Part shown: one piece after another, positions 10,015 to 10,574 of the stretch
How positions within the stretch are numbered: the first letter of the stretch is position 1
Layout: each line of letters opens with the position of its first letter
Assembly: GCF_041248615.1 (NCBI RefSeq)
Contig: NZ_CP158426.1
Direction: 5' to 3' (one strand)
Length of the DNA: 64,000 nt
Source: Escherichia coli
GTDB lineage: Bacteria; Pseudomonadota; Gammaproteobacteria; Enterobacterales; Enterobacteriaceae
Notes under the pieces: model-generated
Told to the model about the DNA's origin: nothing
Seen by the model: only the letters and a program-made list of their open reading frames with translations
Database searches by the model: none
Program-made: the position numbers and the translations under genes

Positions 10015-10574
10015 AGGATGAATTCCTTTTCATAATCCCGATACGTTGATAATTACAGTACAATCATTTTTTTTATGAATGATTAGAGTGGGGGATATCC
10101 GCCAAATAAATTTGTTAGAGAATTTTTGTATTAATGGGTTGTGCGAATATGTTTTTAAGTGTCAAACAATTTTAGTTTGTAGCCAATAAATAAATTGATC
10201 GCGCGGATTTTAATGATCGGTGTCAATCAATGTCAAATGTTTCACCGGATAAAGGCCCGGGGCAGGGAAAGATAAATATTCAGTTGAGTGATGTTTTATT
10301 GCGAATTTTGCGATGCTGATAGAAAAATTTAAATAATTAATTATGTTTCAAGCATTGATATGCGGCAATTCATTGTTAATATTGATACATCATTCTTTAA
10401 TTTGTACCTGATTTTCAGAATTTAGCCTGCTCCGGGCGCTCAGAAGTGTAGGTGGAGTTAAATATATAATGTTAAGAACGTTATAAATATTCGATCTCTA
10501 CAACAGGCTCCTGCATGTGCCAGCAGGAGCGAGTAAATCGTGAGTGGCTGTAATTACAGCGACGAGAAAGGAAC

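Follow-up and report, generated by a model that had tools for sequence, protein, structure and literature searches.

The question raised by this locus is what role, if any, is played by 560 bp of AT-rich, non-coding DNA lying upstream of a lipoprotein gene and an adhesin gene in Escherichia coli. We examined this DNA within a 64-kb stretch of E. coli sequence, referred to here as the window, whose coordinates are used throughout.

Genomic context of the intergenic region

Positions 10015 to 10574 correspond exactly to the gap between two genes, with the yibL stop codon at 10575 and the ATG of a SadB-type lipoprotein gene at 10014, all on the minus strand. The minus-strand gene order in this part of the window was mtlR, yibL, an ORF of 227 aa, an ORF of 1439 aa, and lldP. 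The gap and the genes flanking it were the following:

10575 to 10937, minus strand: yibL, 120 aa, the same-strand upstream gene (Pfam DUF2810; 'YibL family ribosome-associated protein' in RefSeq)
10015 to 10574, minus strand: yibL-sadB intergenic region, the probable regulatory region of the sadB-TAA operon (560 bp, low G+C)
9331 to 10014, minus strand: sadB-like inner-membrane lipoprotein gene, 227 aa (lipobox LLAGC; DUF3251 in RefSeq; match to PDB 4C47, SadB, E 3e-70)
4968 to 9287, minus strand: trimeric autotransporter adhesin (TAA) gene, 1439 aa (Pfam ESPR, YadA_head, YadA_stalk, and YadA_anchor)

A RefSeq E. coli chromosome whose gap is 100% identical showed the same gene boundaries (DUF3251 lipoprotein, 560-bp gap, yibL), and zero features were annotated inside the 560 bp of that record. 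The lipoprotein and adhesin genes that the sequence-only reading had placed downstream of the gap were borne out by the lipobox, the 4C47 match, and the ESPR and YadA domains.

The gap lies within the mtl-lld interval, between yibL and a SadB-type lipoprotein gene accompanied by a trimeric autotransporter gene, and the arrangement mtl-yibL-lipoprotein-TAA-lld is that of the sadBA operon of Grin et al. (PMC3953254). By its mtl-yibL-sadB-TAA-lldP context, the 1439-aa adhesin is the positional orthologue of UpaG, EhaG, and SadA (cf. PMC3953254). The same slot, mtlADR-yibL-sadB-TAA-lldPRD, is occupied by sadBA in Salmonella enterica (STM3690-STM3691), by upaG in the UPEC strain CFT073, and by ehaG in EHEC O157:H7. 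UpaG (UPEC) and EhaG (EHEC) are the E. coli adhesins found at the sadBA position, the O157:H7 copy being annotated as ehaG. The distance between sadB and the adhesin gene is short in both species (43 bp here and 44 bp in Salmonella).

The adhesin itself was shorter here, with 1439 aa versus 1588 aa for EhaG of O157:H7 (a 4767-bp CDS) and 1778 aa quoted for UpaG. Its length differed even where the upstream gap was identical, the protein of NZ_OW967178 (1018-6273) having 1751 aa, and reached 2044 aa in one Salmonella locus. These differences likely correspond to gain or loss of head and stalk repeats. Moreover, sadB of E. coli SF-468 (2467-3150 of its locus) was annotated as a pseudogene with an internal stop, and the adhesin gene downstream of it was intact.

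Base composition and coding content of the gap

The G+C content of the 560-bp gap was 0.350, versus 0.511 for the window, and was equally low in only 2.65% of 560-bp sliding windows. TpA steps were twice as frequent in the gap as in the window (0.092 versus 0.046), placing it in the top 1.9% of windows, and its AT-richness is not a chance fluctuation. The AT-rich portion spanned 10015-10502, with a G+C content of about 0.32; the yibL-proximal 72 bp (10503-10574) had a normal G+C content of 0.53. The largest ORF touching the gap was 38 aa long, and no small ORF was conserved when both strands were compared across alleles. The earlier description of some 560 bp of AT-rich DNA devoid of any ORF of at least 60 aa was thus correct and can be given exact coordinates.

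Two other AT-rich stretches of the window were observed. A second AT-rich gap (10938-11220, G+C about 0.32) separates yibL from the small divergent gene yibT (11221-11430, plus strand) and presumably holds the promoters of both genes. The lowest G+C content of the window was found at 17131-18971. In an identical RefSeq record, this stretch is annotated with an immunity gene of the Imm57 family, a hypothetical gene, and an incomplete RHS-repeat protein of which it contains the C-terminal end; it is an Rhs toxin-tip and orphan immunity region.

Divergence and conservation among alleles

Seventeen alleles of the gap, from at least four genera (Escherichia, Salmonella, Pseudocitrobacter, and one further lineage), were compared. 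The alleles were aligned in the sadB sense and included, for E. coli, those of strains 536, MS1170, elppa4, ST131, O145:H28, O157:H7, and SF-468, and, outside E. coli, those of E. marmotae, E. fergusonii, several Escherichia lineages, Salmonella enterica, and Pseudocitrobacter vendiensis. Five alleles were obtained only after the pattern formed by the two elements described below (P1 and UCE) had been fixed; these came from an enterobacterium with 61% SadB identity, E. ruysiae, Pseudocitrobacter corydidari, and two Escherichia lineages.

The gap was homologous to the orthologous gaps, with 90-100% or about 70% identity to other E. coli alleles. Identity to the window was 92% in strain 536, 70% in ST131, 68% in O145, 52% in O157:H7, and 49% in Salmonella, the last two alleles therefore sharing only 49-52% with the gap studied here. 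The O157:H7 gap was no closer to the window than the Salmonella gap is, and yibL retained 83-95% identity where gap identity dropped to 48-52%.

All 17 alleles kept a low G+C content (0.29-0.36), a length of 489-560 bp, P1, and the UCE, and the long AT-rich gap located 5' of sadB in the sadBA, upaG, and ehaG relatives carried the same P1 and UCE as here. Conservation in the more distant alleles was limited to P1, the UCE, the Shine-Dalgarno sequence, and the overall architecture. The conservation profile exhibited five peaks: a hairpin at 10507-10530; ATTCTGAAAAT at 10421-10411; P1 at 10236-10207 together with CCGCGCGAT; GGCTACAAACT at 10187-10169; and the Shine-Dalgarno and start region at 10037-10007. 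The anatomy of the gap and the conservation of P1, the UCE, low G+C, and spacing are direct observations of this comparison, and it is not the sequence of the gap that has been maintained but its low G+C, its length, and its architecture.

The gap and the two halves of sadB formed a mosaic in which each part had different strain relationships. Identity to the window was 52% (gap) and 58% (sadB 5' half) for O157:H7, and 50% (gap) and 93% (sadB 3' half) for E. fergusonii. Moreover, some alleles were common to different species, with ST131 resembling E. marmotae and O145:H28 resembling Escherichia sp. E1V33. These patterns suggest old polymorphism or recombination between species. Two distant SadB homologues (P0131 and P0133) were uninformative, with no adjoining autotransporter.

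A conserved promoter-like site facing sadB

The sequence-only reading had left promoter positions to prediction, and such a prediction placed one, P1, at 10236-10207 with a start deduced from it:

10231 to 10236, minus strand: P1 -35 hexamer TTGACA, invariant in 17 of the 17 alleles
10207 to 10212, minus strand: P1 -10 hexamer TAAAAT, after an 18-bp spacer; TA[AG][AC]AT in 17 of the 17 alleles
10198 to 10202, minus strand: predicted P1 start, 10200 ± 2, at the usual 7-nt distance from the -10 hexamer and after the G+C-rich discriminator CCGCGCG

P1 (TTGACA-18-TAAAAT) was the best promoter-like site in the gap, matching 11 of the 12 consensus positions and facing sadB, and ranked first in the PWM scan. 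It has the characteristics of a sigma-70 promoter, namely near-consensus hexamers, a spacer within the range of 16-19 bp, and a gene-ward orientation. Salmonella had a spacer of 17 bp, and the other 16 alleles one of 18 bp. Two points count against reading P1 as a promoter: an 18-bp spacer is suboptimal for sigma-70, and promoter-like hexamers arise easily in AT-rich DNA. Indeed, nine promoter-like sites were found in 9800-11300, versus 3.4 expected. The pattern TTGACA-N17/18-TARMAT occurred once in the 64-kb window, versus 0.10 expected, and P1 was the only promoter-like site conserved in all alleles. Moreover, P1 and the UCE were found at the expected place in all five alleles obtained after the pattern had been defined. 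Since the P1 pattern recurred in these later-added lineages, P1 is likely, on comparative grounds, to be the main promoter of the operon. From its position, transcription is predicted to begin near 10200, giving a 5' UTR of about 186 nt.

A second strong promoter-like site (TTGCCG-17-CATAAT, 10368-10340, minus strand) was found only in the allele group of the window and was rejected as not conserved; its -10 hexamer is deleted in ST131 and E. marmotae, so the site is allele-specific at most. Two GATC (Dam) sites were also observed in the P1 core, at 10216-10219 and 10197-10200, one adjoining the -10 hexamer and the other located at the predicted start.

An invariant element upstream of P1

The second element shared by all alleles, the upstream conserved element (UCE), was located as follows:

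10411 to 10421, minus strand: UCE ATTCTGAAAAT, with its core TCTGAAAA at 10419-10412; partial palindrome TTCnGAA

The UCE core, TC[TC]GAAA[AT] (TCYGAAAW), was present in all 17 alleles, including the five added after the pattern had been defined, and was as conserved as the -35 hexamer. Its distance to the P1 -35 hexamer ranged from 171 to 184 bp overall, 13 alleles falling at 179-184 bp and four at 171-172 bp. In the same alleles, other distances were looser, ranging from 163 to 208 from the -10 hexamer to the ATG and from 105 to 155 from the yibL stop to the UCE. Across the alleles compared, the absolute spacing between the UCE and P1 is clearly constrained. The two spacing classes are about one helical turn apart, and all values lie within about half a turn; helical phasing of the UCE relative to P1 is suggestive only.

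The UCE 11-mer occurred twice in the 64-kb window, versus 0.25 expected. Judging from the gene order, the other exact copy (AWTCTGAAAAW, 2082-2092, minus strand) probably falls within the lld genes, and it has probably arisen by chance.

The UCE and P1 flanks were compared by eye with the consensus sites of FNR, CRP, IHF, Fur, ArcA, Lrp, SlyA, Cra, RcsB, DeoR, and OmpR/PhoB, and nothing both convincing and conserved emerged; the UCE is not known to correspond to the consensus of any enterobacterial regulator. A SlyA-like sequence adjoining the UCE, TTAGCAGGCTAA, was discarded, being present only in some alleles. A search of the literature for the UCE string returned only a Gram-positive CodY box and primer sequences. 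The UCE, as AAATTCTGAAAAT, resembles one and a half of the half-sites of the Firmicutes CodY box, AATTTTCWGAAAATT (PMC5966866). Unlike the full CodY box, it conserves only the right half and the TTCnGAA core. As far as we know, CodY does not occur in Enterobacteriaceae, and the likeness was treated as a coincidence.

On another reading, the UCE would belong to a distal promoter, P2, as its -10 and start region, and transcription would begin near 10412. The operon would then have a genuine leader of about 400 nt, and P1 would be a second, internal promoter. The six bases before CTGAAAA do read NANANT in 15 of the 17 alleles (TAAATT, TAAAAT, CATAAT, or GATATT), most alleles carry a G at -14, a feature of extended -10 elements that would account for the lack of a -35 hexamer, and the UCE is located where the first promoter of an operon would naturally be expected, 50-100 bp beyond the yibL terminator. 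However, two alleles lack the critical A at -11, those of E. ruysiae (CTCAAT) and Pseudocitrobacter corydidari (ACTATT), and on account of these two later-added alleles we ranked an extended -10 below a protein-binding site as an explanation of the UCE. Moreover, P2 has no -35 hexamer and fell outside the top eight sites of the PWM scan; the 180 nt between the UCE and P1 are poorly conserved and bear no sign of functional RNA; and tandem promoters have no need of the tight spacing observed between the UCE and P1. We consider a distal promoter at the UCE unlikely.

The yibL 3' end and the history of the locus

The yibL-proximal end of the gap contained two short inverted repeats:

10507 to 10530, minus strand: terminator-like hairpin of yibL, GCTCCTGC, an 8-nt loop, and GCAGGAGC, followed by the weakly U-rich tail CUGUUGUAG
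10547 to 10560, minus strand: short palindrome GCTGTAATTACAGC just past the yibL stop, a small hairpin in the fold, partly conserved between alleles

The fold of 10490-10580 on the minus strand (91 nt) had an energy of -27.8 kcal/mol (z = -3.2), and none of the 200 shuffled sequences was as stable. The hairpin was conserved in Escherichia, and in Pseudocitrobacter it exhibited a compensatory change from C-G to U-A and a U-rich tail; in one lineage (L023), a non-homologous hairpin with a U-tract occupied the same position. A simple terminator scan did not call the hairpin, its tail CUGUUGUAG being only weakly U-rich in E. coli. From its fold and conservation, the hairpin is most simply read as the putative yibL terminator.

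A gap recognisably similar to that of the window was present in 1880 of the 5426 complete E. coli genomes, and a K-12-type junction (at least 80% of a 171-nt probe) in 1262 of the 5426. In other genomes, such as that of O157:H7 strain 86-24, the operon is present with a gap too divergent for blastn to report. In K-12, a segment corresponding to about 4947-10574 of the window is absent, with the break exactly at the yibL stop codon; sadB-TAA and the gap are replaced by about 95 nt with REP-like sequence (K-12 locus 1529-1625). The absent segment agrees with the '5-kb deletion' in K-12 given by PMC3953254. A different alteration was observed in E. coli 24AR0376 (locus L017, 2288-3129), in which an IS1 abuts the gap at about 10446 of the window, only the yibL-side 129 bp are left, and a fimbrial usher/chaperone cluster stands in place of sadB-TAA.

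These data bear on the view that the gap has no dedicated role, being either fast-evolving junk or the recombination junction of a horizontal acquisition, with the operon read through from yibL. Strains do differ extremely, and in a mosaic fashion, in the gap and the 5' half of sadB, the weak U-tract of the yibL hairpin makes some read-through plausible, and K-12-type genomes lack the segment altogether. Yet the length, G+C content, P1, UCE, and spacing of the gap have outlasted a divergence to about 50% identity, which argues for selection, and in every lineage yibL is followed by a terminator-type hairpin, homologous or not. Moreover, Salmonella, E. fergusonii, and Pseudocitrobacter carry the operon at the same site on the chromosome; this suggests that the operon is ancestral and was deleted later in K-12, a position also taken in PMC3953254. 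A gap devoid of any role of its own is, on balance, very unlikely.

The predicted 5' UTR

Downstream of the predicted P1 start, the following features were distinguished:

10015 to 10199, minus strand: predicted 5' UTR, about 186 nt, AU-rich and unstructured (RNA fold z = -0.04)
10169 to 10187, minus strand: conserved block GGCTACAAACTRAAAT, about +14 to +32 of the predicted P1 transcript, a peak of the conservation profile
10062 to 10084, minus strand: AT-rich palindrome AATCATTcataaaaaaaAATGATT in the predicted 5' UTR, kept in the Escherichia and Pseudocitrobacter alleles
10023 to 10028, minus strand: Shine-Dalgarno sequence AAGGAA, 8 nt 5' of the sadB ATG (10014-10012); AAGG invariant in 12 of 12 aligned sequences

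The GCTACAA portion of the block at 10169-10187 was kept in Salmonella and E. fergusonii as well. The palindrome at 10062-10084 was shifted in register in ST131 and E. marmotae and formed a weak 8-bp hairpin in the consensus fold, which also contained a possible 4-bp hairpin (AGGA/UCCU) overlapping the Shine-Dalgarno sequence; both structures are kept within Escherichia, and neither is significant alone. Compared with shuffled sequence, the predicted UTR showed no extra structure (z = -0.04). The consensus fold of 10 alleles had an energy of -8.4 kcal/mol, and 3 of its 18 pairs were changed on both sides in at least one sequence, amounting to almost no covariation. An Rfam scan of 9000-11500 at a permissive E-value returned chance hits only (snoRNA and U4; E > 2). 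The region therefore does not display the features of a structured leader RNA such as a riboswitch, a thermometer, or an attenuator.

The sequence-only reading had described the whole 560 bp as a leader. This description suits the predicted UTR of about 186 nt; it does not extend to the 72 bp of normal G+C flanking yibL, which carry the hairpin, or to the remainder, which lies upstream. Given this flank and the predicted length of the UTR, 10237-10502 more likely constitutes upstream regulatory DNA.

Elements such as small RNAs, riboswitches or thermosensors, small proteins, and phase-variation switches are often found in the long 5' regions of adhesin and biofilm genes, and the gap does contain the two GATC sites of the P1 core and an A8 tract (10069-10076). 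The inverted repeats of the gap were short or poorly matched, and 1872 of the 1880 matching genomes were collinear over at least 80% of the gap, which indicates no orientation polymorphism. None of the ST131, O145, O157, and E. marmotae alleles had the GATC sites, and a Dam/GATC switch was rejected because these sites are allele-specific. A phase-variable switch, either by inversion (fimS type) or by Dam methylation (agn43/pap type), was accordingly set aside. With Rfam hits of E > 2, a leader z of -0.04, almost no covariation, and no ORF conserved, we consider the presence in the gap of any small RNA, riboswitch or thermosensor, small protein, or invertible or Dam-dependent switch to be highly improbable.

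Reported H-NS silencing of the operon

With a G+C content of 0.32-0.35 (0.51 in the window) and a TpA frequency of 0.092 (0.046 in the window), the gap shows the AT- and TpA-richness of an H-NS-silenced locus. All matches to the high-affinity H-NS motif TCGATAAATT were at two mismatches (4 in the gap and 78 in the window), and their number is explained by AT-richness alone.

Repression of upaG/ehaG by H-NS is reported, at the level of the operon, in papers that cite earlier work. The passage of PMC5012682 that cites Totsika 2012 lists H-NS as a repressor of UpaG, and an entry in Table 2 of PMC12525524 states that 'hns deletion derepresses upaG'. In Salmonella, SadA was undetectable in every laboratory growth condition tested, and its native inducing conditions are unknown (Grin et al., PMC3953254). 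In a Salmonella fur mutant, hns was up 3.1-fold and STM3690 (sadB) down 4.2-fold; STM3690 is also listed as Fnr-regulated (PMC3212961). The changes in the fur mutant fit H-NS repression without proving it. PMC5012682 and PMC12525524 both cite Totsika 2012, which reportedly describes H-NS repression of upaG.

Similar AT- and TpA-rich upstream DNA is found at other H-NS-silenced E. coli promoters, namely those of upaC, upaH, the F9 fimbriae, and sslE. According to the entries on such genes in PMC5012682 and PMC12525524, H-NS-silenced adhesin and autotransporter genes of E. coli are cryptic in the laboratory and reportedly derepressed in hns mutants. In the gap studied here, AT-rich tracts flank P1 on both sides, with about 265 bp upstream and about 190 bp, transcribed, downstream. 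In the silencing of proU and bgl, H-NS is bound both upstream and downstream of the promoter. The likeness to proU and bgl is an analogy only; with AT-rich tracts on either side of P1, bridging of the promoter by H-NS would be feasible.

The sequence-only reading had proposed a regulatory region silenced by nucleoid proteins. The published operon-level repression, as given in the passages cited above, and the low G+C content of all 17 alleles agree with this proposal, under which H-NS may bind the gap directly. H-NS silencing would account well for a near-consensus promoter with no activity in the laboratory, set in AT- and TpA-rich DNA (about 490 bp) whose AT-richness has persisted through complete sequence turnover.

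Taken together, we consider it probable that the gap is the transcriptional control region of the sadB-TAA (sadBA/upaG/ehaG) operon, with an H-NS-silenced P1 and a UCE. Read along the minus strand, such a region would begin with about 70 bp of yibL 3' flank bearing the terminator-like hairpin, continue with about 265 bp of AT-rich upstream DNA carrying the UCE (TCTGAAAA), then present the near-consensus sigma-70 promoter P1, and close with an unstructured, AU-rich 5' UTR of about 186 nt ending in the Shine-Dalgarno sequence and the sadB ATG. H-NS, probably with StpA or Hha, would coat the AT-rich DNA on both sides of P1 and keep this intrinsically strong promoter silent under laboratory conditions. 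Expression would then need a further signal or an anti-silencer, for which the UCE is a candidate site. We infer the activity of P1, the direct binding of H-NS, and the binding of a protein to the UCE from the features described above.

Implications for the sadBA, upaG, and ehaG operons

The gap is an ordinary region of an already known kind, and its H-NS silencing is published at operon level; as an otherwise textbook AT-rich control region of an H-NS-repressed adhesin, it changes no concept. The present analysis adds a well-supported position for P1, an invariant UCE with constrained spacing, and the conservation of architecture rather than sequence. The likely promoter at 10236-10207 and the short, invariant UCE offer concrete targets for reporter, pull-down, and mutagenesis work. 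UpaG, EhaG, and SadA have been studied as adhesins and are candidates for use as vaccine or surface-display scaffolds. Tentatively, the UCE may be the docking site of a regulator or anti-silencer that would form, together with H-NS, a looped or phased nucleoprotein switch for the cryptic SadA/UpaG/EhaG adhesins. If this is true, the UCE/H-NS switch would control when the SadA/UpaG/EhaG adhesin is made.
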